Part shown: positions 1-19,682 of the stretch, in pieces | Layout of the letters: each line of letters opens with the position of its first letter | Numbering within the stretch: position 1 is the stretch's first letter | From: Dehalococcoidia bacterium | GTDB lineage: Bacteria > Chloroflexota > Dehalococcoidia > SZUA-161 > SpSt-899 | Length of the DNA stretch: 64,000 nucleotides | Direction: 5' to 3' | Assembly: GCA_046484125.1 (NCBI GenBank) | Contig: JAWOBX010000049.1 | Location: forward strand, 4,437-68,436 | The notes under the pieces: model-generated | The model's input: the letters and a program-made list of their open reading frames with translations, nothing else | What the model was told of the DNA's origin: nothing | The model's database searches: none | Program-made: the position numbers and the translations under genes

Positions 1-627
1 GCCTCCAGTATGGAGCGATCCATGAAGGCTCCCGGGTCTCCTTCATCCGCGTTGCAAATCACGTACTTGACAGGGCCGGGAGCGTCATGGCAGAATTGCC
101 ATTTCATGGCGGTCGGAGCGCCCGCCCCACCCCTGCCCCTCAGTCCAGAAAGTCTCACCTCCTCTATCACATCTTCCGGCGTCATGGTGGCAAGCACTTT
201 TCTGAGGGCCCTGTAACCGTCCCGTTCGATATAATCCTCGATTCTTTCCGGATTAATATGCCCGCAGTTACGCAGTATCACGCGATGCTGTTTGAGGTAG
301 AAGTTTATATCGGAATAGAGAGATATGACCTCACCTGTCATCGGTTCCGTGTAGAAGAGGCGCTCCACAGGTTTGCCTTCTTTCAAATGCATTCCAACTA
401 TGTCGACAGCATCCTCAGGCTGAACCTGGGTATAGAAATATCCATCCGGTTCGATGACAACGTTGGGTCCCTGCTGGCAAAAACCGTGACAACCGCTGAA
501 ATCTATTGAGGCGTTTTCGACGCGCTGCTTTTCCATCTCCTCGAGCAACGCGTTATATACCGCGTCTCCTCCACCGGAGACACATCCAGTTCCTCGACAG
601 ACAAACACAGTGTAATACGGCTTTTCC
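1..627 (-). CDS. NuoF-like NAD(P)H-binding flavoprotein subunit (N-terminal thioredoxin-like 2Fe-2S domain + FMN/NAD domain); partial, runs off window start
   Basis: Own minus-strand translation starts ATG at 627: MEKPYYTVFVCRGTGCVSGGGDAVYNALLEEM...LSGLRGRGGAGAPTAMKWQFCHDAPGPVKYVICNADEGDPGAFMDRSILE. No stop before coordinate 1. Paralogous to the 6706-8631 protein. Absent from the ORF track because it is truncated. Confidence 0.8.
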
Positions 628-639
628 ATAATATTACCT

Positions 640-1119
640 CTACTGCCTGTTACCGAATATCTGACTGACTTTCTTCGGATTCAGTTGACCGTATGTATCG
701 TTGTTGATGACCATATTGGGTGCCAGCGCGCAGACGCCAATGCAGGCCACGGTTTCCAGCGTGTATTCGAGGTCCGCGCTTGTCTCCCCCTCTTCCAACT
801 CAAGTTGTTGCTTTACCAGCTTCAGAATGGTCTTACCTCCACGTACGTGACACGCTGTTCCACGGCATACCTTTACGACATTCCTGCCCCTCGGGGTAGT
901 ATAAAGGCCGGTGTAGAAGCTGATTACGCCCTGAACCTGACTGGGGAATAAACCCAGGCCATCCGCTATGGGTTTAATAGCTGCAGGGGGGATATATCCT
1001 ATCTCAGATTGCACCTCTTGCAAAAGAGGTATCAACAACCATTTCTGTCCTCTGTATTTATCGACGATTTCACCGATTTTGTTCAGGTCTATCTCCGGGA
1101 TTTCCACATTCTCTACCAT
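640..1119 (-). CDS. NuoE-like thioredoxin-fold [2Fe-2S] ferredoxin subunit (HoxE/HndA family)
   Basis: 159 aa; CRGTACHVRGG ... CIGVCALAP four-Cys pattern typical of NuoE/HoxE. Confidence 0.8.
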   Translation of the reverse strand: MVENVEIPEIDLNKIGEIVDKYRGQKWLLIPLLQEVQSEIGYIPPAAIKPIADGLGLFPSQVQGVISFYTGLYTTPRGRNVVKVCRGTACHVRGGKTILKLVKQQLELEEGETSADLEYTLETVACIGVCALAPNMVINNDTYGQLNPKKVSQIFGNRQ

Positions 1120-1156
1120 ATACAGCCCTCAAATCAGCAAATTCACGGCTTATACC

Positions 1157-3544
1157 TTAAAACATCCGGTTTTCAGGATTCATAGCATTCAATCGTGGAG
1201 ACATCGTACTCCGAACTTCGCTGCCAAACCTGTACAGGGACCTGCTCGAAAGAAGCCAGAAAGGATAGTCATTCAGGCTTTTTTCATCAGGAAGCCTCGA
1301 CGGCGCCGGAAGGAATCTTCCATAACCTTCATCGAACCTCTCCTCGTATAGTCGCCGTGTTCCACCACGCCGGCCGTTTACGTTTGGCCAGTAAATCCCC
1401 CCCGTTTCCAGGTTCTCATATGTTATTCCCTGGTACAAAGGTACCATAGAGGAAACCTCATCCATGATCTCCCTGTCGGAACCGTATGACATTGTATGGC
1501 CCATCTTCTCGGCCAGATTGGCTATGATCTGCCAGTCGGGCATGCTCTCCCCCGGCGGGTCGACCACCCTTCTAACCCTCTGAACCCTCCGTTCAAAGCT
1601 GGTGAATGTTCCGTCCTTTTCAGCGAAGCAGGAGGCGGGGAAAACGACGTCGGCCAGCCTGGCTGTATCATTGAGGAATAAATCTTGTACTACCAGGAAA
1701 TCAAGCTGCTTAAAAGCCGCTTCAGCGTCAATGACTCCCGCAATGGTGCCGATAAGATTCTCACCCATGATATACATGCCCTTTATCTTTCCCGATCGGG
1801 CCTGATTGATCATTTCGAAAACGGTTAGCCCGGCTTTACCCGAAACTTCATACCCGGGACGGAAATCCGGAAGGCAGCCCATATCTGACGCGCCCTGAGC
1901 GTTGTTCTCTTCAAGAAGGGCCAGGATTCCCGCTCCCTCCTTGCCGATGTTTCCGGTTAGCAGGGCCAGGTTACTGAGGGCGGTAACGCAATCTGTGCCG
2001 TTCTGCTGGCGCGAGACGCCGGGCCCGTAGATTATTAAAACCGAGTTTGCCTGAGCGATTGTTCTGGCTGCCTCCTGAAGCTCTTTGACGGTGACACCTG
2101 TTGAATTCTCCACATCCTCGGCATTGTAGATCTCGAGCGACCTTTTAAGTTCCTCAAAGCTTTCGGTTCTCCGTGAGACAAAGCTTTTATTCCAGATGCC
2201 CTGATCGATGATCGTCTTTATTATGCCGTTGATAACCGCTGATTCGGTTCCAGCTTTGGGATATAAACCAGGACTTGCGAAGCGGTCGACTGATGTTTCA
2301 ACCGGATTTATACTTATCAGCGGTATATTCCTTAACTTTGAGGCCCTCTTCACCGCGTAGCCTACCAGCGGCGCTGATATCTCGGGGTCGGCCCCAACCA
2401 GCAGTATTACCTCGGCCAGTTCGATATCATCTACAGGATTTGTACTTGCCGGCAATCCAAGGCATTCCCGGAGTGTGGCAATCGAAGTAGAGTAATACAA
2501 TTGTCCGCCGTTATCAATGTTCGGGGTCTCAAGGACCTCACGGGCAAACCTCTGAAGAATGTAATTATCTTCGTTGGTACATTTGGTCGAACCGATGACA
2601 GCGATGCTGTCCGGGCCGTGCTCCGCCTTTATTCTGTTTAACTCGCCCGCCACTTTATCAAAAGCCTCTTCCCATGAGACTGGCTGGAATTCCTCCCCCG
2701 CCTTCACAAGGGGCCGGGTAAGTCGATGGGGGCTGTCAATATAGTCGAATCCATATGAACCGCGTACGCATGCGGTAACTCCATTGGGGGTATCACCATC
2801 CGCTGGCCTGGCTCTGATAATCATGTTGCCGGCAACTTCAAGAGACAGGTTGCATCCCGAAGCGCAGAACCCGCATACCGTCGGCACTACTTTCGTTGTG
2901 GTTCCGTGATAGGGCTTCGCTTTTTCTGATAGTGCCCCGGTAGGGCATATAGCCACACATGTTCCACAGAAGGTGCACTCTGAGAGCTCCAGTCCCACAT
3001 CCCCGACGGTGGCCGGCCTTGACGAAAAACCACGGTTAAAATAATCTATAGCGCCTTCAACGACCAGCTCCTGATCAGCCCTGATGCACTTGGCGCACAT
3101 GATGCACTTACTGAGATCACGCTCGATGAAGGGATTTACGTCACGGATTTCAGCCGGATGGGGAATTCTGTGCAGATCGATCCATCCCACCCCAAGTTCT
3201 CCGGCGATTTGTCGGAGTTGACAACGATTGCCCTTATCACATACCATGCACGAATCGGGATGGCTCGCCAGCATAAGTCTGACGATGGTCCTTCTTCCCT
3301 CAAGCACTTTCTCAGATCTGGTGTTGATGACCATGCCGGGGCCGATAGGGGCTACACAAGAAGCGAGCAGGGATCCGTTTTGTTCATTTTCAACCAGGCA
3401 GATCCTGCAAGCGCCGTACGGCTTCAGGTGCTCATCGTGACACAGGGTAGGGATATGTATTCCTGATTCTCTCGCCAGTTCAAGGATAGTCATTCCCGGC
3501 TGACCGCTTACTTCAACGCCATCCAAGGTGATCGTAATGGCCAT
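1157..3544 (-). CDS. NuoG/FdhA-family large subunit: N-terminal 2Fe-2S + multiple 4Fe-4S motifs fused to a molybdopterin-oxidoreductase-fold domain
   Basis: 795 aa; CHDEHLKPYGACRICLV, CDKGNRCQLR, CIMCAKCIRAD, CTFCGTCVAICP, then molybdopterin-oxidoreductase-like region (VTACVRGSYGFDY ... KCTNEDNYILQRFAREV). I could not see the Sec/Cys-His active-site pair expected for formate dehydrogenase. Confidence 0.7.
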   Translation of the reverse strand: MAITITLDGVEVSGQPGMTILELARESGIHIPTLCHDEHLKPYGACRICLVENEQNGSLLASCVAPIGPGMVINTRSEKVLEGRRTIVRLMLASHPDSCMVCDKGNRCQLRQIAGELGVGWIDLHRIPHPAEIRDVNPFIERDLSKCIMCAKCIRADQELVVEGAIDYFNRGFSSRPATVGDVGLELSECTFCGTCVAICPTGALSEKAKPYHGTTTKVVPTVCGFCASGCNLSLEVAGNMIIRARPADGDTPNGVTACVRGSYGFDYIDSPHRLTRPLVKAGEEFQPVSWEEAFDKVAGELNRIKAEHGPDSIAVIGSTKCTNEDNYILQRFAREVLETPNIDNGGQLYYSTSIATLRECLGLPASTNPVDDIELAEVILLVGADPEISAPLVGYAVKRASKLRNIPLISINPVETSVDRFASPGLYPKAGTESAVINGIIKTIIDQGIWNKSFVSRRTESFEELKRSLEIYNAEDVENSTGVTVKELQEAARTIAQANSVLIIYGPGVSRQQNGTDCVTALSNLALLTGNIGKEGAGILALLEENNAQGASDMGCLPDFRPGYEVSGKAGLTVFEMINQARSGKIKGMYIMGENLIGTIAGVIDAEAAFKQLDFLVVQDLFLNDTARLADVVFPASCFAEKDGTFTSFERRVQRVRRVVDPPGESMPDWQIIANLAEKMGHTMSYGSDREIMDEVSSMVPLYQGITYENLETGGIYWPNVNGRRGGTRRLYEERFDEGYGRFLPAPSRLPDEKSLNDYPFWLLSSRSLYRFGSEVRSTMSPRLNAMNPENRMF

Positions 3545-3842: not shown

Positions 3843-5120
3843 ATGGAAAACAAGTCCGTGGATATTTACAAAGCACTGTACGATATAGCGGTGCAAGTCT
3901 ATTCAAGCACCTCAACTGAGACAGTGCTGAACGACATCGTCAGGAGTACCGCTCTCGCGCTCGGACTTAAAGGATGCTCCCTGATGCTGCTTTCGCCGAA
4001 TCGGAAACAGCTCATCCACACTGCATCATATGGACTGAGCGAACCATACCTTGGTAAAGGACCGGTCGGTGTCGGGCCGATTCTCGCTGAGGTGTTGAAG
4101 GGAAATCCGGTTGCCGTAGACGACGTAACCACCGACCAGCGCGTCCAGTACCGGGATCAGGCCATCCGAGAAGGAATAGTCTCCATGCTGTCAGTACCCA
4201 TGGTACTCCGGAACGAAACTACGGGCGTCTTGAGAGTGTATACTAACGAGCCCAGGCACTTCACCTTTGACGATATACAGTTTCTACACCTGGTCGCCAG
4301 CCTGGGGGCCATAGCCCTTAAAAAGGCTCGTGAGTATGAATCTCAGGAAGAGTATTATGAGCAGCGCTTGCGAGAGAAGGTGAATCAGCTCGAAGCGGCA
4401 ACCATGGAGCTGGAAAAGCTGGAGGAGGGCAAGAAACGGCTCTTAACCTTCATGTCCATAGTCGCCCATGATCTGAAATCGCCTCTGGCTGCGATTCAGA
4501 GCTATTTCGGCGTAATGCTGGGAGGCTATGCCGGTGAGCTCAATGATAAACACCGCCAGATGATAGAGAGGAGCAGTACACGTATCGACGAATTGCTGGA
4601 ACTGATAAGCGACCTGCTGGATATCTCCCGCATAGAGACCGGACAGACCGTCCAGGAGATGAAAGAGGTGTCGCTCGTTGAACTCTGCCGGAACCCGGTG
4701 GAGGACGCCCAAAGGCTGGCGGAACATAAAAAGATCCGTCTTGCCGCCTCAGTTGAACGTGACCTGCCTGCTATTTACGGTTCGCCTATAAGGATTCGAC
4801 AGTTGTTTACCAATCTGTTGAGCAATGCCGTAAAGTTCACTCCAGAAGGAGGAAATGTCAACTTCTCTCTTTACGAAAGAAACGGCTTTATCGTTGGCGA
4901 GGTGAAGGATAACGGAGCCGGCATCCCTGAGGAGGACCTGGAACATGTGTTCAACGATTTCTACCGCGCCAGCAATGTGGAGGTGCCCGGCACAGGACTG
5001 GGCCTGCCTATCGTAAAACGGATTGTCGAGTCGCATGGTGGTGAAATCAAGGTGGAGAGCCCGTGTCCAGATACCGGCACGGGATGCAGATTCATATTTA
5101 CGCTTTACGTTGAAGACTAG
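3843..5120 (+). CDS. Sensor histidine kinase with N-terminal GAF domain (HisKA + HATPase_c)
   Basis: 425 aa; H-box VAHDLKSPLAAI; G-boxes DNGAGIPEE and GTGLGLPIVKRIVESHGGEI; no obvious TM segment. Confidence 0.85.
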   Translation: MENKSVDIYKALYDIAVQVYSSTSTETVLNDIVRSTALALGLKGCSLMLLSPNRKQLIHTASYGLSEPYLGKGPVGVGPILAEVLKGNPVAVDDVTTDQRVQYRDQAIREGIVSMLSVPMVLRNETTGVLRVYTNEPRHFTFDDIQFLHLVASLGAIALKKAREYESQEEYYEQRLREKVNQLEAATMELEKLEEGKKRLLTFMSIVAHDLKSPLAAIQSYFGVMLGGYAGELNDKHRQMIERSSTRIDELLELISDLLDISRIETGQTVQEMKEVSLVELCRNPVEDAQRLAEHKKIRLAASVERDLPAIYGSPIRIRQLFTNLLSNAVKFTPEGGNVNFSLYERNGFIVGEVKDNGAGIPEEDLEHVFNDFYRASNVEVPGTGLGLPIVKRIVESHGGEIKVESPCPDTGTGCRFIFTLYVED

Positions 5121-5145: not shown

Positions 5146-5592
5146 ATGAATACGCTGAGAAACACCGGAGGCTCGCAATTGCCACAAGGGCCAAAAATAT
5201 TAGTCATTGATGACGACCCCGATATCAGAGAGGCTCTCGCCATAATACTTGAAACCGAGGATTACCAGGTAACCACAGCCCGATATGGCGCTGAGGGGCT
5301 GGAGAAGGTCAAGTCTGATAAACCGGACCTGATTATTCTCGATCTTATAATGCCGGGAGTAGGTGGATTCGCGGTGTACAAGAAACTCAAGAGTCCGGAT
5401 AAACCCGAATGGAACGATATACCGATTCTGGTTCTGACATCCCTGAGGGAGGATTCCAGCCGGGCGAGATTTGAGGAAGAAACGGGTATGGAGATGAGGG
5501 TTGATGACTATATTGAGAAGCCGATTTCTCCGGCGACAATAGTGGAACGGATTGGAAGGCTGCTTAAAAACACAAAGGAACATACAACTTGA
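5146..5592 (+). CDS. Stand-alone response-regulator receiver (CheY-like)
   Basis: KILVIDDDPDIREAL ... DLIILDLIMPGVGG; start moved to in-frame ATG at 5146 to avoid overlap with the kinase gene. Confidence 0.75.
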   Translation: MNTLRNTGGSQLPQGPKILVIDDDPDIREALAIILETEDYQVTTARYGAEGLEKVKSDKPDLIILDLIMPGVGGFAVYKKLKSPDKPEWNDIPILVLTSLREDSSRARFEEETGMEMRVDDYIEKPISPATIVERIGRLLKNTKEHTT

Positions 5593-5626: not shown

Positions 5627-6013
5627 ATGGATGACAAAGAAGCCAGAATTCTGCTAGTGGATGACGACCCGGATTTCGTGGAAGCGACAAAGACCGTGCT
5701 GGAGACCAAATACTCAGTGAGTATTGCCACTGAGGGTGAAGAGGGTTTGAAAAAGGCAAGGGAAGAAAAACCTGACCTGATAATCCTCGATGTGATAATG
5801 CCCGTTAAGGATGGATTCACAGCGGCTGAGCAGTTGAAAAAGGATTCTGAGCTAAGTGATATACCCGTGATCATGCTTACGAGCTATGCCGAGAGGAAGG
5901 GAGAGACCAGTATACCTGTCTCCAAAGGTATGAGCCTCGAGGCGGAGGATTACATCGAGAAACCGGTCAAGCCTGAGGAGCTCCTTAAAAGGGTTGATGC
6001 TCTCTTAAAATAG
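5627..6013 (+). CDS. Stand-alone response-regulator receiver (CheY-like), second copy
   Basis: RILLVDDDPDFVEATK ... DLIILDVIMPVKDG ... YIEKPVKPEELL. Confidence 0.8.
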   Translation: MDDKEARILLVDDDPDFVEATKTVLETKYSVSIATEGEEGLKKAREEKPDLIILDVIMPVKDGFTAAEQLKKDSELSDIPVIMLTSYAERKGETSIPVSKGMSLEAEDYIEKPVKPEELLKRVDALLK

Positions 6014-6181
6014 GCCATGATCGCCGCTATTACCAGTTAATCCGGTGGGTCAGCTTATTCTAGTCAATAAATAATGCTACGAGACGCGCAGGGGCAGGGG
6101 AATAACCTGCCCCTGTAATTTGAAATAATACTTACGGAATAGCAATTCCCCATTCCGATCAGCAAGTTCGGAGAAGGTGAT

Positions 6182-6709
6182 TTGACTGAGGCAACCTCTG
6201 AGACAACGGAAGAAGAGAAGAAACAGATAAACGGCCTGCTGAAAAACCTTGACCAGAAGTTTTCCAAAGACCGCAGGAATCTCATTCCGATACTGCAGGA
6301 AGCGCAAAGTCTGCTTGGATACCTTCCACATGAAGCCATGCAGGGAATTGCCGGGTTCCTTCGAATTCCGGCAATTGATGTATTCAGCGTGGTAACCTTC
6401 TATAACCAGTTCAGACTTAACCCGCCCGGTAAACACTCTATCAGAGTCTGTTTGGGCACAGCCTGTCATATTGCGGGCGGTAAAATAATTCTTGACTCGT
6501 GGAAAAGGCGGCTGAATATCGGTACGCGGGAAACTACCCCGGATCGTGGATTTGACCTTGACACTGTAGCGTGCGTTGGATGCTGCGCCATGGCGCCGGT
6601 AACGGTGATAGACGGGCAGGTCAACGGCAGGATAACTCCCACCAGAGTGGATGGCATCCTTCTCTCATACAAGATGGAGCAGGATAGCGAGAATGAGGAA
6701 AGCCGATGA
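6182..6709 (+). CDS. NuoE/HoxE-like [2Fe-2S] thioredoxin-fold subunit
   Basis: 175 aa, TTG start after GGAGAAGG; CLGTACHIAGG ... CVGCCAMAP; 4-nt overlap with the next gene. Confidence 0.8.
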   Translation: MTEATSETTEEEKKQINGLLKNLDQKFSKDRRNLIPILQEAQSLLGYLPHEAMQGIAGFLRIPAIDVFSVVTFYNQFRLNPPGKHSIRVCLGTACHIAGGKIILDSWKRRLNIGTRETTPDRGFDLDTVACVGCCAMAPVTVIDGQVNGRITPTRVDGILLSYKMEQDSENEESR

Positions 6710-8631
6710 ATTCCGACGTCGCCTCCATTTTTGAAAAACTGCGAAAACAGGCGGTTGCCAGGTGGGAATCGGTTTTTCGTGGAGATAATCCAGTGGTTCT
6801 GGTGGGAACAGCGACATGCGGCAGGGCCGCCGGCGCTATTGATGTACTCAACACCATAAGAGATAAACTGGCCGCGGAACACCCGGAGATCGCCGTTCTT
6901 GAAGTGGGATGCATGGGCCATTGTTACGCGGAGCCGCTGGTGACCATTATAAAGCCGGGGGGCGAATATCCTCCCATATTGTACGGATACGTCACTCCTG
7001 AAATCGCGAGTTTGCTGGTACGTGACTATGTCCTGGGAGAAGATCCTTCCTTCGAGTTCATGCTGGGAGCGCTTGAGGAACACCAGGTAATACCTTCTAT
7101 TTACGATCTGCCCCGGTACTCTTATGAACAGCATTTACTGCTAAGGAATTGTGGCAACATCGATCCCGATAGTATAGAACATTATATAGCGAACGGGGGT
7201 TATTCGGCCCTATCAAAGGCACTGCAACTTAAGCCGGAAGATATCATCGGGAGCCTGATAGAATCCGGCTTGAGGGGAAGGGGCGGGGCGGGTTTCCCCA
7301 CTGGAGAGAAATGGCAGATATGCCGGGATGCCGGAGCTGACAGCAGCTATTTGATCTGTAACGCTGATGAAGGCGATCCCGGGGCCTTCATGGACCGGTC
7401 CATTCTGGAGAGCGACCCCCATTCGGTTATCGAAGGAATGGCCATCGCCGGTTATGCCATCGGGACTCACGAGGGTTACGTTTATGTGCGCGCGGAATAC
7501 CCCCTGGCGGTTGACCGCGTAAAGATGGCAATAGAACAGGCACGCGAATGGAACCTGCTTGGAAAGGGTATTCTAGGCAGTGATTACGACTTCGATATTG
7601 ATGTATTCCGGGGTTCGGGGGCTTTTGTCTGTGGAGAGGAGACCGCGCTCATTGCGTCTATGGAGGGAAGACCGGGAATGCCGCATCACCGCCCCCCGTT
7701 CCCCGCCATCGCAGGACTTTATAGTAAACCCACCGTAATCAATAATGTCAAAAGCCTTGCCTCGGTCCCTCACATAATCGGAGAGGGCCCTGAATGGTTT
7801 TCAAGTACCGGGACTGAGGAGACCAGCGGAACCGCGGTCTTCGCCCTGGCGGGTAAGTTGGTCAACACCGGCCTGACAGAGGTTCCAATGGGAACTACAT
7901 TGCGTCAGGTTATATTTGATATAGGCGCGGGCATTCCACAAGGTAAGAAATTCAAGGCGGTGCAGATCGGCGGCCCGTCGGGTGGTTGCCTCCCGGAATC
8001 CGAGCTGGACAGGCCGATTGATTTTGATTCCCTGAGAGAGGCTGGAGCCATGATGGGATCGGGTGGCATGGTGGTTCTCGATGAAGATGACTGCATGGTT
8101 GATGTGGCACGGTACTTCCTTGAGTTTACACAGGGGGAATCCTGCGGGAAATGCACTATGTGCCGGCTCGGCACCAGGCAGATGCTTGAGATTCTCGAGG
8201 ATATAACCAGGGGCGAGGCCAGCATGGAACAGCTCGACACGCTTGAAAAGCTGGCCGCTGACATTAAGGACGGGTCATTGTGCAATCTGGGAAAGACAGC
8301 GCCGAATCCAATCATGACAACTCTCAGGTATTTCAGGGAGGAATACGAAGCTCATATCAACGAAAAAAGGTGTCCGGCGCTGCGCTGTCCAGAGCTGATA
8401 GCATATTACATAGTGCCGGAGAAATGCGAGCGCTCGTGCGACGCCTGTGTGGGAACATGTACGGTCGAGGCGATATATACCGGCACCAAAAGAGTGAAAG
8501 TCATCGATCAGAGCAAGTGCGTCAAATGCAATACCTGTGTCGATGCGTGTCCGCCTCAATACAATGCGATTGTAAAGATATCCCCGTTAAGCGAGCTGCC
8601 GGAGGCTTTGCCTCCCCTCGAGCAGAAGTAG
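6706..8631 (+). CDS. NuoF/HoxF-like NAD(P)H:FMN flavoprotein subunit with C-terminal 2x[4Fe-4S] ferredoxin extension
   Basis: 641 aa; GLRGRGGAGFPTGEKW (NADH/FMN), ESCGKCTMCR (N3 cluster), C-terminal CDACVGTC ... CVKCNTCVDACP. Confidence 0.85.
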   Translation: MNSDVASIFEKLRKQAVARWESVFRGDNPVVLVGTATCGRAAGAIDVLNTIRDKLAAEHPEIAVLEVGCMGHCYAEPLVTIIKPGGEYPPILYGYVTPEIASLLVRDYVLGEDPSFEFMLGALEEHQVIPSIYDLPRYSYEQHLLLRNCGNIDPDSIEHYIANGGYSALSKALQLKPEDIIGSLIESGLRGRGGAGFPTGEKWQICRDAGADSSYLICNADEGDPGAFMDRSILESDPHSVIEGMAIAGYAIGTHEGYVYVRAEYPLAVDRVKMAIEQAREWNLLGKGILGSDYDFDIDVFRGSGAFVCGEETALIASMEGRPGMPHHRPPFPAIAGLYSKPTVINNVKSLASVPHIIGEGPEWFSSTGTEETSGTAVFALAGKLVNTGLTEVPMGTTLRQVIFDIGAGIPQGKKFKAVQIGGPSGGCLPESELDRPIDFDSLREAGAMMGSGGMVVLDEDDCMVDVARYFLEFTQGESCGKCTMCRLGTRQMLEILEDITRGEASMEQLDTLEKLAADIKDGSLCNLGKTAPNPIMTTLRYFREEYEAHINEKRCPALRCPELIAYYIVPEKCERSCDACVGTCTVEAIYTGTKRVKVIDQSKCVKCNTCVDACPPQYNAIVKISPLSELPEALPPLEQK

Positions 8632-8669
8632 TCGCATCTACGGCGATAATATGTAATGGCTCAGAGCAG

Positions 8670-9326
8670 GATGTTATGGCGATGAAGGAAGTCACACTCA
8701 CTATCGACGGCAGGGAGGTCACTGCTGCCCAGGGCGAGACAGTTCTATGGACAGCTCTGGATAATGATATATACATACCTAACCTGTGTGCCATTCGTGA
8801 GGCCCCGGAGGTGAGCGCCTCCTGCCGGCTCTGTTTCGTAGAAGTCGAAGGGAAATCCCGGCCGGTAACCGCATGCACCGAACCGGTTGATGAAGGTATG
8901 GTTGTCAATACGCGCGGTGAGTCCTCCACACAATTGGCCCGAACGGCACTGGAGTTGCTGCTGGCGAGCCATGACGTGGATTGCAAAAACTGTTCGGCTA
9001 ATGGTTCATGCGAACTGCAGAGAGCGGCGAGGCACCTTGGTGTCAAGCTAAAGACGAAAAGGCTTAAAAAGCTGGTCCGGGACCTGCCTGTAGATGATAG
9101 CAGCCCGATTTTCATATATGATCCAAACAAGTGCGTACTATGCGGGAAGTGCGTGTGGAAGTGCCGGGAGCAAGGGATCGGCGCCATCGGATTTGCCTAC
9201 CGCGGATTTGAAAGGATGGTAACCTCTTACGGGGGTCAGCCTATAGGTCAGTCACAGTGCAACCAATGCAGAGAATGCGTAGAGATATGTCCTGTCGGAG
9301 CACTGAGTCTAAAGGAGAACAAATGA
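8670..9326 (+). CDS. HoxU/NuoG-N-terminal-like small Fe-S subunit (2Fe-2S + 4Fe-4S motifs), no catalytic domain
   Basis: About 218 aa from in-frame ATG 8670 (MAMKEVTLTIDGREV...): CRLCFVEVEG, CKNCSANGSCELQ, CVLCGKCVWKC, CNQCRECVEICP. The track ORF 8280-9326 extends upstream into the NuoF-like gene. Confidence 0.7.
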   Translation, partial: DVMAMKEVTLTIDGREVTAAQGETVLWTALDNDIYIPNLCAIREAPEVSASCRLCFVEVEGKSRPVTACTEPVDEGMVVNTRGESSTQLARTALELLLASHDVDCKNCSANGSCELQRAARHLGVKLKTKRLKKLVRDLPVDDSSPIFIYDPNKCVLCGKCVWKCREQGIGAIGFAYRGFERMVTSYGGQPIGQSQCNQCRECVEICPVGALSLKENK

Positions 9327-10108
9327 CATACCAATCACTTCTCCTGGAAAAAGATAGCGGTCTGGCTACAGTCACGCTTAACAGGCCTGAGAAGATGAAC
9401 GCCATCTCTCCCGAACTGGTGGACGAATTGATTGAAGTGATAGATGAAACAGAGCGCGATGACGAAGTCCGCGCGGTACTGATTACCGGGGCGGGGAGGG
9501 CATTTTGCGCGGGAGGGGATGTCGAAACCCTTCTTTCCGGGACCGATAACCCGGCTGAAGTCTACAGCTCCAGCCTGAAGGGTGCCAAGATAATCTCCGG
9601 AATTAGAAACGCCTCCAACCCATGGATAGCGGCGGTCAATGGTCCGGCGGTCGGTGCCGGGTGTAATCTTGCTATCGGTTGTGATATTATAATTGCGGCC
9701 AGTAGCGCTACGTTCAGCCTGGCGTTCATGAAGCTCGGGTTGCACCCGGATACCGGGGGCATTTACCTGCCCACCCGATTGTTGGGCCCAGCTCGTGCGC
9801 TTGAGCTGGTTTTAACCGGTAAAACAATCGGAGCGGAAGAGGCTGAAAGAATAGGATTGATAAACCTGGTTGTACCGGATGATGAACTGGCGATCAGATC
9901 AAAAGAGATGGCACTAAAGCTGGCTCACGGTCCATCAAGGAGTATAGCGATGGCCAAGTCCAGCATCTATAGCGCCGCGAGTATGGATATGGAGTCGATA
10001 CTGGAGAGTGAAGCTCGTGCGATCAGTCTGACAATGGCAACAGACGATGCGCGAGAGGGAATAAGAGCTTTTCTGGAAAAGAGAAAGCCTCAGTTCAAAG
10101 GAAAGTAA
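9323..10108 (+). CDS. Enoyl-CoA hydratase/isomerase (crotonase family)
   Basis: LITGAGRAFCAGGDV oxyanion-hole motif; about 261 aa from in-frame ATG at 9323. Confidence 0.8.
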   Translation: MTYQSLLLEKDSGLATVTLNRPEKMNAISPELVDELIEVIDETERDDEVRAVLITGAGRAFCAGGDVETLLSGTDNPAEVYSSSLKGAKIISGIRNASNPWIAAVNGPAVGAGCNLAIGCDIIIAASSATFSLAFMKLGLHPDTGGIYLPTRLLGPARALELVLTGKTIGAEEAERIGLINLVVPDDELAIRSKEMALKLAHGPSRSIAMAKSSIYSAASMDMESILESEARAISLTMATDDAREGIRAFLEKRKPQFKGK

Positions 10109-10110
10109 TT

Positions 10111-10866
10111 TTGGCTGTCACGATAGTAACCGCGGGCAAGGGCGGAACGGGTAAGACGACCATAGCCGCTCTTTTAATTGATCTACTTTCGAAAAAAGGG
10201 ACCGTTCTGGCCGTCGACGCCGATCCAAGCACCAACCTCAACCTGGCGCTTGGAATGCCCGTGGAAGAAACAATCGGCAAGATCAGAGAGGATATGGCGG
10301 TGGCGGTCAAAAGCGGCACATACGATAACAGCGTATCCAAACCAGACTATATAGAGATGAAGATAATGGAGTCGCTGGTCGAGTCAGAGAAGGTGGATTT
10401 ACTTGCCATGGGGCGTCCGGAGGGGCCGGGGTGCTACTGCGCGGCAAACAACATGCTCAGGGCGTCAATTGACCGCCTGGGGAAGAATTATGATTACGTG
10501 GTAATTGATTGCGAAGCGGGCATGGAGCATGTGAGCCGCCAGACGACCAGGGATATAGATATATTGCTTATCGTCTCCGATCCTACCATAAGAGGTATTA
10601 TAGCCGCTTCGAGGATGAAACCTCTGATAAAAGAGATGAGGGCTAGGGTAGAGCAGATATGGCTGATAGTAAACAGGGTAGATGGAGATCTTCCTGAGGA
10701 AATACTGAACGCGGTAAAGGAAAACGAGCTTGACCTGCTGGCCAGCATCCCCGCGGACCCAAATCTGGCTGCACTTGAGTTGAAGGGTGAGCCCTCAATA
10801 AACCTTCCGGTGGAATCACCGTTGAAGACAGGGATAGCTGAGATCGCCGGTAAACTGGGACTTTGA
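10111..10866 (+). CDS. cooC: CooC/AcsF-type Ni-insertion ATPase for CO dehydrogenase (MinD/ParA family)
   Basis: Deviant Walker A AGKGGTGKTT; CooC-like length; GPGCYC motif typical of CooC metal site. Confidence 0.7.
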   Translation: MAVTIVTAGKGGTGKTTIAALLIDLLSKKGTVLAVDADPSTNLNLALGMPVEETIGKIREDMAVAVKSGTYDNSVSKPDYIEMKIMESLVESEKVDLLAMGRPEGPGCYCAANNMLRASIDRLGKNYDYVVIDCEAGMEHVSRQTTRDIDILLIVSDPTIRGIIAASRMKPLIKEMRARVEQIWLIVNRVDGDLPEEILNAVKENELDLLASIPADPNLAALELKGEPSINLPVESPLKTGIAEIAGKLGL

Positions 10867-10955
10867 GTCAATCAAGAGGCAAGTCCTCTTCAGATGCGTC
10901 GGCTTCCGAACGAGGCCATTACGAACATAAATACTTAAGGAAGGAGAAAAACAAC

Positions 10956-11882
10956 ATGGAAGTAATCGGAGAGAACATTCACATCATCTCCAAGCAGATC
11001 CGGGAGGCCGTTGACAATCGCGACAAAGGGTTTATTCAGGACCTGGCCAGAAAACAGCAGGAGGCAGGAGCCAAATTCCTGGACCTGAACATCGGTCCGC
11101 GGAAAAAGGATGGCGTGGAGGTCATGCAATGGATGGTTGAGACAGTCAAAGAGATAACAGATCTCCCTATCTCTCTGGATACCACCAATGCCGCTGCTAT
11201 TGAAGCCGGACTTAAGATGCTGCCGCCAAAAACCATAATAAACAGTACAAACGCCAACCCTGAAAGGATGCAGGTTCTCATGCCTATGGCGGCTGAGCAC
11301 GATGCGATGCTGATTTGCCTGACCTTGAGAGCCACCGGCCTGCCGGCTACGGCGGACGAGCGAGCCGAAATCGCCGCCACCGATCTGATGATGACCGCTA
11401 TGGAATACGGTCTGCCCATGGAGAATATCATATTCGATCCTCTGGCTATGACCGTCAATGGAACGCAGTCTCATGGCCCCGAGGTTATAAAGGCGACGCA
11501 GGTCATAAAATCGTTGAACGATCCGCCCTTCCTTACCACCTGCGGGCTTTCCAACGTCTCAAATTCCTGCCGTGACGAAGTTCGGCCCATTCTCAATCGA
11601 GTGTATGCCGCCATGCTGGCCGGAGCCGGGATGGACTGGCCGATCGCCGATGCTTTTGACCAGGAACTTCGTAAAGTAATTGACATAGTTAATAACCGTG
11701 ATGACTCAACACCGCTCAATAAGTTGTATCTTGCGCTGCATGATGCCTCGGCAGCGGGTGCCGCCGAGGAGTTTGATTTCAGCATCGTTGATCAGAATGA
11801 CCCCGAGCAGGTTGCTGTCATGAAAACCGCCAAGGTGCTGTTAAACCAGACGCTTTACGCTCACGGTTTTCTAAATCTCTAA
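10956..11882 (+). CDS. acsE: Methyltetrahydrofolate:corrinoid/iron-sulfur protein methyltransferase (pterin-binding, AcsE/MeTr)
   Basis: Matches, region by region, Moorella MeTr as I remember it: IGENIH..., FLDLNIGP, INSTNAN, GLPMENIIFDP, GLSNVSN. Strong RBS AAGGAAGGAG upstream of ATG 10956. Confidence 0.8.
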   Translation: MEVIGENIHIISKQIREAVDNRDKGFIQDLARKQQEAGAKFLDLNIGPRKKDGVEVMQWMVETVKEITDLPISLDTTNAAAIEAGLKMLPPKTIINSTNANPERMQVLMPMAAEHDAMLICLTLRATGLPATADERAEIAATDLMMTAMEYGLPMENIIFDPLAMTVNGTQSHGPEVIKATQVIKSLNDPPFLTTCGLSNVSNSCRDEVRPILNRVYAAMLAGAGMDWPIADAFDQELRKVIDIVNNRDDSTPLNKLYLALHDASAAGAAEEFDFSIVDQNDPEQVAVMKTAKVLLNQTLYAHGFLNL

Positions 11883-11885: not shown

Positions 11886-11930
11886 TCAAAACAGCCTCCC
11901 GGAGTCAAATTCTCCGGGAGGCTGTTCTTA
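11886..11930. terminator. Bidirectional hairpin between convergent acsE and mutL (12-13 bp GC-rich stem; T-run on the mutL side)
   Basis: cagcctcccggag-tcaaattc-tccgggaggctg; the minus-strand reading gives stem followed by ttttgattttt. Confidence 0.6.
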
Positions 11931-13939: not shown

Positions 13940-15493
13940 GTGAAAACCGTCTCTCAACGTTTGGAAGAGCTGCGCGAGCGCCGGGGAAAAGAACTGGCAA
14001 TGGGAGGCCCTGACCGGATAAACAAACAGCATGATTCAGGTAAGTTGACGGCAAGGGAAAGGCTCCACCTGCTATTCGATGAAGGAAGTTTCGTAGAAAC
14101 CGACATGTTCGTGAGGCACCGGTGTGACATGTTTGGCATGGAAAAAACATTCATTCCCGGCGAGGGAGTCGTCACCGGCTATGGGATGGTTGAAGGCAGA
14201 AAAGTATGCGCGTTCGCCCAGGACTTCACATCTACCGGTGGCACACTGGGTGAGATGCACGCTAAAAAGATATGCAAGGTAATGGACCTGGCCATGAAAA
14301 CAGGGTGCCCCCTCATAGGTCTGAATGACTCAGGCGGCGCGAGAATCCAGGAGGGCGTAGACGCGCTCAGCGGATACGGCGACATATTCTATCGGAACGC
14401 AATCGCCTCGGGCGTTATACCTCAAATATCCGCCATAATGGGGCCGAGCGCCGGAGGCGCCGTTTATTCGCCGGCAATGACGGACTGGATCTTCATGGTC
14501 AAGAAAACAAGCTATATGTTCATCACCGGCCCGGGAGTAATTAAAGAGGTGACCGGTGAAGAGATCACGTCAGAGGAACTTGGCGGCGCAATGTCCCACT
14601 CGACCAAGAGCGGGGTGTGCCATTTCGCCTGTGAAAGCGACGAGGACGCGATAGAGAAGGTAAAGGAGTTGCTCAGGTATCTGCCCAACAACAATATGGA
14701 AGACCCGCCCATGGTTCAAACGGAGGACGATCCGGACCGGACCGAACCCGGACTCGATACCTTAATCCCGGATAACCCCCAGCAGGTTTACGATATGAGA
14801 AAAGTAATTGAGGCGATAGTCGACAACGGGGTGACCGTCGAGCCTCATTATCATTATGCTAAAAACCTCATCGTTTGCTTCGCCCGCCTCAACGGCAGAG
14901 CGGTGGGGATCATCGCCAATCAGCCGATGCACCTGGCCGGTTGCCTCGACGTTGACGCCTCGGATAAACTCACCCGATTTGTCAGGTTCTGCGACGCCTT
15001 TAACATACCCATGCTCACCATCGCTGACGTCCCTGGATATCTCCCCGGCACCAATCAGGAGTGGTCGGGAATAATACGGCATGGCGCGAAGATACTCTGG
15101 TGCTATTCGGAGGCGACCGTTCCCAAAGTCACATTAATCACTCGGAAAGATTACGGTGGATCTTATCTGGCGATGTGCAGCAAGGCGCTTGGCGCTGATC
15201 TGACGTTCGCCTGGCCGACGGCCGAGATCGCTGTCATGGGAGCCCAGGGAGCTATCCCCATCCTTTATGGCAAAGAGATAAAAAAGGCGGAAGATCCCGA
15301 AGCGGTGAGGGCACAGAAGCTGGATGAATACAAGGATGCGTTGTACAACCCTTATATCGCGGCAGCCCGCGGACTGGTGGACGAGGTGATAATGCCCAGT
15401 GAAAGCAGGCCCAGGATAATCAATGCTTTCGAGATGCTCGATACCAAGCGTGAGGTAAGGCCACCGAAGAAGCACGGCAACATACCGGTATAG
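13940..15493 (+). CDS. Acyl-CoA carboxyltransferase, 12S-type (methylmalonyl-CoA carboxyltransferase / propionyl-CoA carboxylase beta family)
   Basis: 517 aa; typical N-terminal LEELRERR...GGPDRINKQHDSGKLTARERL and both carboxyltransferase halves. Confidence 0.85.
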   Translation: MKTVSQRLEELRERRGKELAMGGPDRINKQHDSGKLTARERLHLLFDEGSFVETDMFVRHRCDMFGMEKTFIPGEGVVTGYGMVEGRKVCAFAQDFTSTGGTLGEMHAKKICKVMDLAMKTGCPLIGLNDSGGARIQEGVDALSGYGDIFYRNAIASGVIPQISAIMGPSAGGAVYSPAMTDWIFMVKKTSYMFITGPGVIKEVTGEEITSEELGGAMSHSTKSGVCHFACESDEDAIEKVKELLRYLPNNNMEDPPMVQTEDDPDRTEPGLDTLIPDNPQQVYDMRKVIEAIVDNGVTVEPHYHYAKNLIVCFARLNGRAVGIIANQPMHLAGCLDVDASDKLTRFVRFCDAFNIPMLTIADVPGYLPGTNQEWSGIIRHGAKILWCYSEATVPKVTLITRKDYGGSYLAMCSKALGADLTFAWPTAEIAVMGAQGAIPILYGKEIKKAEDPEAVRAQKLDEYKDALYNPYIAAARGLVDEVIMPSESRPRIINAFEMLDTKREVRPPKKHGNIPV

Positions 15494-15494
15494 G

Positions 15495-15686
15495 ATGTCA
15501 ATCATGGAGGATAAGAAAAAGCTGTCAGCCATTACCGCTGCCATAAACGCCTACATCGAGGAAGAGTCAGCGCCTGGAATTCGAAAGCAACCTGTACCCG
15601 AGGTAAGCTTATGGAGGGCATCAGGACGGCAGGAGATAATGATGATGTCCAATCTATGGCAGCGTAGAATCGTACCGTTACGTTGA
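15495..15686 (+). CDS. Small hypothetical protein (63 aa) between the 12S and 5S genes; possible carboxylase-associated small subunit
   Basis: Tightly packed between two co-oriented genes; no TM segment; no family recognised. Confidence 0.3.
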   Translation: MSIMEDKKKLSAITAAINAYIEEESAPGIRKQPVPEVSLWRASGRQEIMMMSNLWQRRIVPLR

Positions 15687-15705
15687 ATCTGAAAGGAGCT
15701 TTTAA

Positions 15706-17670: not shown

Positions 17671-17784
17671 TGATCTATCGGTTATAATACGGAGCGCCAG
17701 CTATTAATGATCCAACTTATTCCCGATAAGTGCGGAAGTCAGACGATAATTGCTGGATAAACGTGAATTTATGGAGGTAGAAGG

Positions 17785-18711: not shown

Positions 18712-18818
18712 CGCTCGAAAAAGCATACCGCCAAAAATACGAGGGCCTGATTCCCTTTGAGAGAGGGGAACAGGCCTTTCAATTGTTAAGACTTCTCGTT
18801 GTCGAGCAGGAGAGATAA

Positions 18819-19664: not shown

Positions 19665-19682
19665 GGTTGTAAGGTAAAAACC

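Follow-up and report, generated by a model that had tools for sequence, protein, structure and literature searches.

The gene trio at positions 6182-9326 on the plus strand of the window, the 64,000-nucleotide stretch of Dehalococcoidia DNA that was analyzed, is on sequence grounds a member of the Bfu (HydABC-type) family, encoding a BfuCBA core with a minimal A subunit. On balance, its products probably form a free-standing, soluble module that bifurcates or confurcates electrons between NAD(H) and ferredoxin and trades them with a trans-encoded partner. For anaerobes that live close to the thermodynamic limit, Bfu-type enzymes are one of the main means of interconverting NADH, ferredoxin, and a third redox couple. 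To our knowledge, the site for the third substrate is built in or co-encoded in all characterized members. A widespread three-gene form in which the wiring subunit stands alone would mean that the bifurcating core also serves as a detachable module.

The three genes correspond to the set of NuoE, NuoF, and NuoG N terminus that a sequence-only reading of this DNA had recognized. The first, bfuC (6182-6709), encodes a NuoE/HydC-like [2Fe-2S] subunit of 175 residues, the carrier of cluster C1. Its start codon is TTG, with the Shine-Dalgarno sequence GGAGAAGGTG on the 5′ side. An ATGA overlap joins it to bfuB (6706-8631), which encodes a NuoF/HydB-like flavoprotein of 641 residues. The third gene, bfuA-min (8670-9326), encodes a "Y-junction" subunit of 218 residues. 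The open reading frame listed for this gene (8280-9326) is too long, and the true start is ATG 8670 or ATG 8676; the latter gives 216 residues and is the start used by NCBI for a 100% identical protein (P0121).

The A subunit was found to be a bare Y-junction. It matches Fer2_4 (4e-20), NADH-G_4Fe-4S_3 (2e-12), and two Fer4 domains in Pfam, as expected for the 2Fe-2S/4Fe-4S protein of about 218 residues reported earlier. Its ligands correspond to a [2Fe-2S] cluster (A1), a His-ligated [4Fe-4S] cluster (A2), and two [4Fe-4S] clusters (A3 and A4). In an alignment with T. maritima HydA (152 bits), the full length of the protein covers residues 3-205, and it ends after cluster A4, at the point where the H-domain of HydA would begin. 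It also matches the N-terminal region of NiFe-HydA. The HoxU structure (5xf9_B) scores below the HydA N terminus, at 101 bits, and StnC is matched over residues 1-110 only. Neither Pfam nor structure-sequence alignment revealed a catalytic domain in bfuA-min, be it an H-cluster, pterin, or GltD domain. Since this subunit is a Y-junction only, the site for the "third substrate" would lie outside the operon. The small-subunit cluster ligands, on which the sequence-only reading depended, are in place: all 16 are conserved in 77 relatives, except that C165 is Asp in 17. Because dead-end clusters are conserved in NfnA and NiFe-HydA as well (PMC12318220), the conservation of A3/A4 ligands is no proof of an external partner. 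None of its 120 nearest homologues in the database is shorter than 207 or longer than 241 residues. The nearest long relatives are A subunits of the formate dehydrogenase type, with 46%-53% identity over the Y-junction, and in one protein (P0261) a Y-junction is fused to an MvhD/FlpD domain. The predicted structure of bfuA-min is of low confidence (pLDDT 45). In JGI pipelines the protein is labeled "bidirectional [NiFe] hydrogenase diaphorase subunit."

The flavoprotein carries the extra ferredoxin domain that had been noted before. A thioredoxin-like domain forms the N terminus of bfuB, and a 2x[4Fe-4S] ferredoxin-binding domain (B3/B4) forms the C terminus. Pfam identifies Complex1_51K (8e-46) and NADH_4Fe-4S (2e-34), and Fer4 models also match. 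The protein has the FMN/NAD(H) site, cluster B1 [4Fe-4S], and a Zn ("B2") site, with a GRGGAGF motif at residue 191. In phmmer searches of the PDB, NfnB, NiFe-HydB, StnB, and HydB score 593-711 bits against bfuB, whereas the nonbifurcating FdsB, Nqo1, and NuoF reach at most 395 bits; these scores place bfuB with the bifurcating (HydB/StnB) flavoproteins. The Zn-site ligands C463, T501, H550, C556, and C561 align with C438, C476, H525, C531, and C536 of the A. mobile protein, and further ligand sets are C480/483/486/526, C574/578/581/585, and C605/608/611/615. Between 75 and 83 of the 83 sequences keep the ligands of the Zn site and B1 and the eight Cys of B3/B4. Of the domains that mark a Bfu B subunit (the FMN-binding domain of NuoF, SLBB, the [4Fe-4S] domain of NuoF, and ferredoxin-type 4Fe-4S domains; PMC9304861), one, SLBB (PF10531), gave no match in bfuB of the window at E ≤ 1e-3 and is precomputed for many homologues of 68%-75% identity. 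At the N terminus, the "B5" site consists of three Cys and a conserved His, so the cofactor content of bfuB is partly guessed. The site resembles B5 of C. saccharolyticus NfnB, which has a single Cys in the first motif and holds Zn in the structure, and by analogy it probably binds Zn. Homologues of bfuB carry the NCBI name "NADH-quinone oxidoreductase subunit NuoF."

The C subunit, as claimed earlier, is a NuoE-like 2Fe-2S protein (2Fe-2S_thioredx, PF01257, E = 2e-45). Its best eight PDB matches are the C subunits of solved Bfu enzymes (110-137 bits), compared with at most 98 bits for 24-kDa subunits of complex I. The residues C90, C95, C131, and C135 are invariant among 63 relatives. Cluster B1, the Zn site, the eight Cys of B3/B4, and the Cys of C1 have been tied to bifurcation (PMC9304861, PMC11829005), and nonbifurcating homologues lack the Zn-site His and the C-terminal 2x[4Fe-4S] domain (PMC9304861). 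All of these features are present here and conserved in 83 relatives.

The trio is conserved in 85 related loci of Dehalococcoidia, Bacillota, and Desulfobacterota at 54%-76% identity. Its hosts include sulfate-reducing and syntrophic Bacillota, and Desulfofundulus australicus DSM 11792 is a cultured carrier. The genomic neighborhood was compared over 10-kb flanks; a partner gene, be it for a hydrogenase or a formate dehydrogenase, may lie beyond them. No hydrogenase or intact formate dehydrogenase lies within 10 kb of the trio in any of the 85 related loci, so a cognate catalytic gene just beyond the operon, which would have counted against the sequence-only reading, was not found in relatives. 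H-cluster motifs and NiFe large-subunit motifs are absent from the open reading frames of 83 loci, and no HoxYH genes occur in the Pfam-annotated contexts (L001, L002, L083-L085). No FdhF gene adjoins the trio in the 86 loci. BLAST with the Mo domain retrieved molybdopterin proteins in the window and in L003 only; both are degenerate and represent the protein of a second operon described below. When the open reading frames of 83 loci were clustered all versus all, no cluster apart from the trio itself reached more than 13 loci, and the neighbors that did recur were housekeeping genes. Among 150 downstream genes classified by Pfam, no family occurred more than five times. Families of the nuo type are missing from the recurrent neighbor clusters and from the neighbor families sampled.

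In the window, the trio is the core of a longer operon. On the 5′ side lie a GAF-HisKA-HATPase sensor kinase (3843-5120, plus strand) and two receiver-only response regulators (∼5146-5592 and ∼5627-6013, plus strand; Response_reg 1e-24 and 1e-25), all seen by Pfam where the earlier reading had placed them. This block of kinase, regulators, and trio is common to the window, L003, L083, and L084, and the three proteins are candidate regulators of the operon. Downstream, as the same reading had stated, no catalytic subunit follows on the plus strand. Instead, an enoyl-CoA hydratase/isomerase family gene (ech, 9323-10108; ECH_1 6e-68) is translationally coupled to bfuA through an ATGA overlap; it occupies the same place in L083 and L084 and is missing in L003. 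Next is a gene for a CooC-like Ni-insertion ATPase (10111-10866, plus strand; CbiA) with a GPGCYC CxC motif, whose best PDB match is CooC1 of C. hydrogenoformans (3kje, 4e-20) and which is kept 3′ of the trio in L003, L083, and L084. The last gene of the operon (10863-11882, plus strand; Pterin_bind) encodes an AcsE-like methyl-tetrahydrofolate:corrinoid/Fe-S protein methyltransferase. The best PDB matches of this protein are the Moorella and Carboxydothermus MeTr (1.5e-63), and it scores 228 bits with NCBIfam PRK07535, below the cut-off of 259. The order trio-ech-cooC-acsE is preserved in L083 and L084. Between acsE and a convergent mutL, the terminator scan found a GC-rich hairpin with a 17-bp stem (11888-11928), a probable bidirectional terminator that would mark the end of the operon.

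A second NuoG/E/F-like operon, on which the earlier reading was silent, occupies the minus strand (3-3544), 2.6 kb upstream of the trio. It encodes a formate-dehydrogenase-like protein of 795 residues (1157-3544), a NuoE-like protein (640-1119), and a NuoF-like protein (3-629) cut at the window edge. In the 795-residue protein, Tyr replaces the catalytic Cys/Sec and the C-terminal pterin-binding domain (Molydop_binding) is missing. In relatives, the Bfu-like operon of this minus-strand type carries MetVF.

Genes of the Wood-Ljungdahl pathway and of ferredoxin metabolism recur near the trio. A gene for CooC, an AcsE-like protein, MetF, or MetV lies within 10 kb in 9 of 83 loci and, among the 41 loci that span 15 kb or more, in 7. 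The gene order is MvhD-HdrA-MvhD-MetV-MetF-RR-HK-trio in L011 and FolD-HdrA/MvhD-HdrCB-MetV-MetF-FolE2-CooC-trio in L049. A divergent MvhD-HdrCB-HdrA and OFOR operon is found in L084, and OFOR genes lie 3′ of the trio in Desulfofundulus (L025 and L026) and in L079. In ∼75 of the 86 loci no neighbor is informative, and the window, L003, L083, and L084 represent a single lineage, so the Wood-Ljungdahl/Hdr/OFOR link is seen in a minority of loci. The leading candidates for the partner, from gene context, are a complex of the MvhD-HdrABC(-MetFV) type, CODH/ACS, and a 2-oxoacid:ferredoxin oxidoreductase.

The solved homologues suggest how such a module may work. NAD(H) would bind at the FMN of the B subunit, and the C-terminal [4Fe-4S] clusters B3/B4 would be the site of ferredoxin reduction or oxidation. 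The low-potential branch would be gated by the C subunit through its mobile [2Fe-2S] cluster. Mid-potential electrons would pass in or out through cluster B1 to the A subunit, whose presumably exposed A3/A4 clusters may exchange them with a separately encoded iron-sulfur partner. A bolder version, which we consider rather unlikely, is that the trio is a universal exchangeable "plug" whose bare Y-junction docks through MvhD- or ferredoxin-like adaptors onto HdrABC-MvhD-MetFV, OFOR, and CODH/ACS in one cell. If so, coupling to HdrA would create a two-stage (Bfu and Hdr) bifurcation cascade, through which the Hdr-type methylene-tetrahydrofolate reductase of Wood-Ljungdahl organisms would gain its connection to NAD(H) and ferredoxin, a link long sought. 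Redox models of syntrophs and of subsurface Dehalococcoidia have a gap that the identity of the partner would close; it would also mend the present "NuoF / HoxU / complex I" annotations and could shed light on what donates electrons to, or accepts them from, Hdr-type methylene-THF reductases.

Four other explanations of the trio were weighed against a module with a trans-encoded partner. It may be a stand-alone, nonbifurcating diaphorase that moves electrons between NAD(H) and ferredoxin or flavodoxin with no third partner, as reported for isolated cyanobacterial HoxEFU. The 86 loci without a cis-encoded partner would fit such an enzyme, as would the JGI label of the small subunit; E, F, and a four-cluster U are formally the HoxEFU architecture, and HoxE and HoxU are among the top NCBIfam matches. 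However, both equivalog cut-offs are missed widely (HoxE, 135 bits versus 224; HoxU, 173.7 versus 333), so the HoxEFU identity proposed in the sequence-only reading falls. Each of the three subunits scores best with bifurcating enzymes rather than with HoxFU/NuoEF, and the bifurcation-associated Zn-site His and B3/B4 domain are conserved. Characterized Bfu enzymes reduce NAD+ and ferredoxin only when both are present (PMC9304861), and an uncoupled Fd:NAD+ reaction would presumably cost energy-limited anaerobes ∼200 mV. A diaphorase is therefore judged unlikely. The same reading had also named the Stn type. The B and C subunits indeed resemble StnB/StnA and NfnB/NfnC to about the same degree as other Bfu cores, yet an NADH-dependent ferredoxin:NADP+ transhydrogenase of the Stn/NfnABC type is extremely improbable. 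What defines Stn/NfnABC is a subunit of 1172 residues in which a GltD-like NADPH/FAD domain is combined with an inactive FdhF-like one (PMC10482914). Neither of these domains of StnC/NfnA (PMC10482914, PMC11829005) is present in the 218-residue protein, and the Stn-type parts of the window sit outside the trio, in the minus-strand operon. What stands of the earlier family assignment is a bifurcating-type NuoE/F/G-N trio without a cis-encoded catalytic subunit.

A split bifurcating formate dehydrogenase or hydrogenase (HylABC-FdhF2, HydABC, or HoxEFUYH type) is suggested by the formate dehydrogenase-type A subunits nearest to bfuA-min, and HylABC-FdhF2, as described in PMC5861303 and PMC6085437, is a characterized precedent with a noncatalytic hydrogenase-like A subunit. 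Characterized enzymes of this kind, however, have their catalytic gene next door (within ±4 genes in PMC6085437), and none is found here in 86 loci; the sole nearby Fdh-like gene has its own E and F and encodes the protein with the altered catalytic residue and truncated C terminus. This makes a split enzyme quite improbable. Very improbable, too, is an NADH-input (N) module that completes an 11-subunit NuoABCDHIJKLMN complex I without its own EFG genes. The idea was raised earlier for marine Dehalococcoidia, and in a Chloroflexi genome an 11-subunit Nuo and a separate nuoEFG operon were read as one complex (PMC5736913). The NCBI name of the flavoprotein homologues points the same way, and Nuo-Bfu complexes were predicted by Schut et al. 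(PMC9304861), but the predicted type has the ABC genes within the nuo cluster (PMC9304861), and no membrane-subunit gene recurs among the neighbor clusters or families sampled here. The equivalog cut-offs are missed for nuoF_fam (475.5 versus 558.65) and NuoE (130.8 versus 141). At 218 residues, compared with ∼780-910 for NuoG, bfuA-min also lacks the C-terminal molybdopterin-like part, through which NuoG touches the remainder of the arm in complex I structures that have been solved.

A bifurcating module with a separate partner can be compared with several known systems. HoxEFU, like the trio, has three subunits, the small one with one [2Fe-2S] and three [4Fe-4S] clusters; apart from the scores, it is ruled out by the C-terminal 2x[4Fe-4S] domain, the Zn-site His, and the absence of HoxYH nearby. 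The trio shares its bifurcating core with StnABC/NfnABC (PMC7483475, PMC10482914, PMC11829005). With the Bfu family as a whole (solved members HydABC, NiFe-HydABCSL, NfnABC/StnABC, and WorABCSL; Schut et al., 2022, PMC9304861) it has in common the C and B subunits with the B1, Zn, B3/B4, and C1 ligands, the A1-A4 Y-junction, the C-B-A gene order, and tight coupling; solved B subunits show 55%-60% identity-level similarity to bfuB. In Bfu Types 1-3 the third-substrate module resides in A (Type 1) or in extra subunits (Types 2 and 3), and the trio has neither; Type 4 lacks the A subunit, which the trio has. In HylABC-FdhF2 of Gottschalkia acidurici, a bifurcating formate dehydrogenase (Wang et al., 2013, as cited in PMC5861303 and PMC6085437), the noncatalytic hydrogenase-like A does no more than conduct electrons to the HydBC-type core, as may the A subunit of the trio. 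The likeness to HylA is by description rather than by sequence, and FdhF adjoins HylABC, unlike the trio in 86 loci. WorA bears a Zn-finger/helix adaptor (PMC12318220), whereas bfuA-min keeps A3 and A4 and has no C-terminal domain at all. For benzoyl-CoA reductase (BamBCDEFGHI) and MetFV-HdrABC-MvhD, a NuoEFG/Bfu or NADH module has been modeled as feeding HdrA/MvhD (PMC9304861; "X-type MTHFR," PMC8515935). The likeness to these lies in the genes alone, in few loci: HdrA/MvhD and MetVF stand beside the trio in L011, L049, and L084, and the MetVF-linked NuoGEF-like set of the window is the minus-strand operon rather than the trio. There is precedent for BfuABC as a "plug" that serves separate modules, in WorABCSL (PMC12318220) and with Bam, Por, Codh, and Mbh (PMC9304861).

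The sequence-only reading had placed three tightly spaced genes at window positions 6182–9326; these were borne out, all on the plus strand, and the observation is secure because their Pfam domain matches are strong and would not be expected by chance. The first gene (6182–6709, +; PF01257, 2e-45) encodes a NuoE-type thioredoxin-like [2Fe-2S] protein of 175 aa and starts with a TTG codon preceded by the Shine-Dalgarno sequence GGAGAAGGTG. It overlaps, through ATGA, the second gene (6706–8631, +), which encodes a NuoF-like protein of 641 aa in which Pfam recognizes the NuoF FMN-binding and [4Fe-4S] domains and a C-terminal two-[4Fe-4S] region. The mechanical ORF of the third gene spans 8280–9326 (+), and its true start is the ATG at 8670 or 8676, the latter being the choice of NCBI for a 100% identical database protein of 216 aa (P0121). 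Its product is a small Fe-S subunit with Pfam matches to Fer2_4, the His-ligated NuoG-type [4Fe-4S] motif, and a two-[4Fe-4S] domain. The GAF histidine kinase (3843–5120, +) and the two receiver-only response regulators (about 5146–5592 and 5627–6013, +) said to lie upstream were likewise recovered by Pfam. Within the 168-bp spacer between the second regulator and the trio is a GC-rich hairpin (AGGGGCAGG ... CCTGCCCCT, window 6089–6116), which the terminator scan did not flag because it has no T-run; it may be a terminator or attenuator that splits the regulator genes from the trio operon. The claim that no catalytic subunit follows the trio also holds, the downstream genes being ech, cooC-like, and acsE-like. 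Indeed, the operon runs past 9326: the stop codon of gene 3 shares an ATGA with the start of an enoyl-CoA hydratase gene, which is followed, gap-free, by the gene of a CooC-like ATPase (best PDB match CooC1) and then by that of an AcsE-like methyl-THF:corrinoid/Fe-S-protein methyltransferase (best PDB matches Moorella and Carboxydothermus MeTr, 1.5e-63). The terminator scan found a hairpin with a 17-bp stem after the acsE-like gene (11888–11928). Going by the names of its closest database proteins, the window comes from a bacterium of the Dehalococcoidia (Chloroflexota).

The trio was assigned to a family by ranking phmmer scores against solved structures. In a search of all PDB chains, the flavoprotein scored 593–711 bits with the B subunits of solved bifurcating enzymes (C. 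saccharolyticus NfnB, 711; A. mobile NiFe-HydB, 705; T. sibiricus NfnB, 697; S. ovata StnB, 681; the HydB of A. woodii, T. kivui, and T. maritima fall in the same group) and at most 395 bits with the non-bifurcating FdsB, Nqo1, NuoF, and NDUFV1. The top eight PDB matches of the NuoE-like subunit are C subunits of Bfu enzymes, the HydABC-type family of FMN/Fe-S electron-bifurcating enzymes (110–137 bits, with complex I at ≤98). The small subunit aligns end to end with residues 3–205 of T. maritima HydA (152 bits), also matches the corresponding N-terminal region of T. kivui HydA1 and NiFe-HydA, and ends exactly where the catalytic or C-terminal domains of these three proteins start. Because the scores are those of the bifurcating family and all of its characteristic cofactor ligands are kept, the trio is assigned as BfuC-BfuB-BfuA (nomenclature of PMC9304861), with BfuA cut down to the A1–A4 junction, described as a conserved "Y-shaped" element (PMC12318220). 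These comparisons make it very probable that the trio forms a core of the Bfu type whose A subunit is minimal. The composition without a catalytic partner noted by the sequence-only reading therefore stands, but neither of the families it named, HoxEFU and Stn, applies: a HoxEFU identity was ruled out by NCBIfam scores and by the 101 bits of the small subunit with HoxU of the solved NAD-reducing hydrogenase, against 152 with HydA. Modelled with AlphaFold2 on an alignment of 42 sequences, the small subunit reached a mean pLDDT of 45, too low for the model to be used.

For bfuB, the window protein was aligned to A. mobile HydB and conservation was checked in 83 family members; every cofactor site that the literature describes as characteristic of Bfu enzymes is present in the trio. 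In bfuB, these comprise B1 (C480, C483, C486, C526), the "B2" site (C463, T501, H550, C556, C561), which has turned out to hold Zn in most structures (PMC11829005), B3/B4 (C574, C578, C581, C585 and C605, C608, C611, C615), and the glycine-rich FMN/NADH motif GRGGAGF at residue 191; C1 lies in the NuoE-like subunit (C90, C95, C131, C135). The N-terminal thioredoxin-like domain of bfuB ("B5") has only three Cys (C38, C69, C73) and a conserved H72. Its first motif, with a single Cys, is that of C. saccharolyticus NfnB, where the site holds Zn and not [2Fe-2S] (PMC11829005), and by analogy the B5 site of the trio probably binds Zn or an atypical cluster. Sixteen cluster ligands are found in the small subunit, forming A1 (C40, C52, C55, C69), A2 (H101, C105, C108, C114), and A3/A4 (C155, C158, C161, C165 and C197, C200, C203, C207). 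The sequence-only reading had let its assignment hang on such ligands; checked by alignment, all are kept in 77 relatives, with the exception of C165. At this residue (window about 9162–9164), which closes the first CxxCxxCxxxC motif as its fourth Cys, 17 of the 77 have Asp. In other ferredoxins, a Cys-to-Asp change at this position leads to a cluster that is Asp-ligated or can convert between [4Fe-4S] and [3Fe-4S].

Scanning genomes for the flavoprotein yielded 80 loci whose versions are 54%–76% identical to bfuB. Carriers include Dehalococcoidia, Bacillota (the cultured Desulfofundulus australicus DSM 11792, Desulfallas, Ammonifex, Syntrophomonadaceae, Dethiobacteria), and Desulfobacterota-type MAGs (Desulfatiglans, Desulfobacteraceae), together with a single Actinomycetota MAG and a single Polyangia MAG. 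In the latter (L058:740–3466), the NuoE-like and NuoF-like proteins appear fused in one 908-aa ORF, an arrangement that may be genuine or may stem from misassembly or a frameshift. At every locus whose contig extends far enough, the trio genes lie together in unchanged order. The small subunit measures 201–248 aa across the loci, and its closest 120 homologues in a collection of 5.8 billion proteins are all 207–241 aa long. At one Desulfobacterota-type locus, a second, different trio precedes the Bfu trio by about 7 kb (L076:370–2783; U-like, 214 aa; E-like, 142 aa; F-like, 409 aa); its F-like protein is without the extra N- and C-terminal domains, and the set is of the HoxEFU/NuoEF-type, non-bifurcating kind.

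When the ORFs of 100 aa or more from the 10 kb on either side were clustered all-versus-all, no family apart from those of the trio was shared by more than 13 of 83 loci, and the recurrent neighbors (ABC ATPase, HAD phosphatase, phosphoglucomutase, Fur, radical SAM, DNA polymerase III delta, FtsK) were rejected as partners, being housekeeping genes. When the three genes that come after the trio were surveyed with Pfam at 57 loci, no family occurred in more than 5 of the 150 proteins, and hydrogenase, pterin, and POR families were absent from the top 25. No ORF with [FeFe] H-cluster or [NiFe] large-subunit motifs was detected in trio loci with flanks of up to 10 kb. A molybdopterin-domain query matched only in the window and its closest relative, L003, and five more Pfam-annotated trio contexts, including L083 and L084 of the window's lineage, likewise showed no partner. 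Since clustering, census, motif, and molybdopterin searches found none, the view that related genomes have no adjacent cognate hydrogenase or formate dehydrogenase (Fdh) was upheld within 10 kb.

The sole recurring functional theme near the trio is ferredoxin-linked and Wood-Ljungdahl chemistry. A CooC-like, AcsE-like, MetF, or MetV gene lies within 10 kb at 9 of 83 loci and at 7 of the 41 loci of at least 15 kb, compared with a roughly estimated chance of about 1%–2% for a Wood-Ljungdahl gene in a random 20-kb window of a 2–3 Mb genome. This is an enrichment, but one confined to a minority of loci; for this reason, and because the window, L003, L083, and L084 represent one lineage, it is taken as a lead and not as a finding. 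The block GAF kinase-two regulators-trio-ech-cooC-acsE is kept at 72%–76% identity in L083 and L084 and, without ech, in L003. Two further loci show the orders MvhD-HdrA-MvhD-MetV-MetF-RR-HK-trio (L011) and, on a single strand, FolD-HdrA/MvhD-HdrCB-MetV-MetF-FolE2-CooC-trio (L049). A 2-oxoacid:ferredoxin oxidoreductase (OFOR) directly follows the trio in two Desulfofundulus genomes and L079. As general partners, OFOR, which adjoins the trio in only 4 loci, and MetV/MetF, adjacent in a few loci only, were rejected. L084:1–6687 (minus strand) and L083:1–6807 share the kinase-RR-RR-trio-ech-cooC-acsE block but carry different divergent operons, a Bfu'-GltD-MetVF set in L083 and MvhD-HdrCB-HdrA(-MvhD) followed by OFOR in L084, which suggests interchangeable redox modules at one locus. 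The HdrA beside the trio is split in two ORFs in L049:1812–4854 (358 + 641 aa) and L084:2532–4973 (198 + 609 aa), and this could reflect an in-frame selenocysteine UGA. In one database relative of the small subunit, P0261, the Y-junction is fused to additional Fer4 motifs and to an MvhD/FlpD domain, which is the usual adaptor to HdrA.

Divergent from the kinase/regulator/trio block, a second NuoG/E/F-like (Bfu-like) operon occupies window positions 3–3544 on the minus strand. It encodes an Fdh-like A subunit of 795 aa (1157–3544, −) with a Y-junction as in the trio followed by Molybdop_Fe4S4 and Molybdopterin domains and, in Pfam, no Molydop_binding domain; a NuoE-like protein (640–1119, −); and a NuoF-like protein that the window edge truncates (3–629, −). 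Upon alignment of the 795-aa protein to B. subtilis YjgC/ForC, a Tyr stands at the position of the catalytic Cys, from which it appears that its FdhF-like domain is probably dead, as in StnC. Orthologues of the NuoF-like protein in L003 (70% identical) and L083 have 1020–1030 aa, with a four-Cys thioredoxin-like domain, FMN and B1 modules, and a Zn-site motif, and end in Fer4_20 and Pyr_redox_2 (GltD/NfnB-like NADPH-FAD) in place of B3/B4. Operons of this type extend into MetV in L083 and L003 and, in L083, into MetF too. By domains and orthologues, the Stn-type parts announced for the window are indeed there, but in this operon and rearranged, not in the trio. The Fdh-like gene was rejected as the partner of the trio: it has its own E and F, is without the catalytic Cys and C-terminal domain, and adjoins the trio only in the window's own lineage.

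By homology to solved Bfu enzymes (PMC9304861, PMC10482914, PMC11829005, PMC12318220), the FMN of the B subunit would be the reaction site for NAD(H), and electron pairs would be split or merged at the flavobicluster B1-FMN-C1. Low-potential electrons would travel via the mobile C1 domain to B3/B4 and ferredoxin, and mid-potential electrons along B1-A1-A2 to A3 or A4. Because BfuA stops after A4, the third redox couple would have to be brought by a separate protein docking on the Y-junction. Separate modules feeding BfuA are known (WorSL, PMC12318220; NiFe-SL) or predicted (Por, Codh, Mbh, and Bam assemblies; PMC9304861). Gene context points to an MvhD/HdrA-type complex (with MetFV), CODH/ACS, or OFOR as the best candidates, and the partner may differ between lineages. 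Taken as a whole, a Bfu-type core with a minimal A subunit and a partner in trans is the reading we favor, with some reserve. A plain NADH:ferredoxin diaphorase seems unlikely. It is improbable that the trio belongs to a split Fdh or hydrogenase whose catalytic gene lies far away; in favor of this reading, a search of representatives of 1.84 billion proteins gave Fdh-type A subunits (46%–53% identity) as the closest long relatives of the small subunit. The N-module of an 11-subunit complex I, a reading proposed for marine Chloroflexi (PMC5736913), is quite improbable. Stn, in spite of the high StnB score, is hardly credible for the trio and was ruled out by comparison of the small subunit with PDB chains.

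The window holds two further clusters. At 13940–23579 (+) lies a methylmalonyl-CoA/succinate pathway cluster encoding a carboxyltransferase, a biotin-carrying oxaloacetate-decarboxylase-alpha-like protein, malate dehydrogenase, and class I fumarase, then a CCG-domain protein, an Fe-S protein, and a fumarate-reductase-type flavoprotein; these last three were identified by Pfam, and the other names were read from translations and backed by Pfam labels on syntenic L083/L084 genes. The minus-strand cluster at 44429–52277 contains small Cys-rich and maturation-type genes. Pfam supports a CGGC-domain protein, a NifX-like protein, DUF1847, an orphan MetV-like protein with no MetF beside it (PF12225; 45188–45934, −), and a MinD/ParA-type ATPase with a 4Fe-4S insert (47896–48774, −); a second MinD-type ATPase (49007–49849, −), a NifU-like protein, another NifX-like protein, and a Zn-ribbon protein were read from translations only. 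In L002, a similar set (two CbiA-Fer4, Zn_ribbon_8, Nitro_FeMo-Co, CooT) comes immediately after the trio.

The Bfu family is already known, and the form of the trio is unlikely to astonish a specialist. Schut et al. reported 17 B-subunit clades without assigned function, and their supplement has no entry for a partner-less clade (PMC9304861). The literature searched yielded neither a publication on this particular trio nor a description of a widespread, strictly three-gene form with A1–A4 kept, no C-terminal domain, and no added subunit. In public pipelines, the trio genes bear the labels NuoE, NuoF, and either "2Fe-2S cluster-binding protein" or "bidirectional hydrogenase diaphorase subunit". 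The trio is thus a concrete, testable orphan with a cultured carrier, and it may bear on the open question of the Hdr-type methylene-THF reductase. The minus-strand operon, in which Stn-like parts are rearranged, matches a speculative "X-type" methylene-THF reductase that includes a NuoEFG homologue and has been noted in Desulfobacterales and Chloroflexi (PMC8515935), and its B-GltD fusion is also known from a hydrogenase subtype (PMC11406978). The trio itself fits none of the four published Bfu types.
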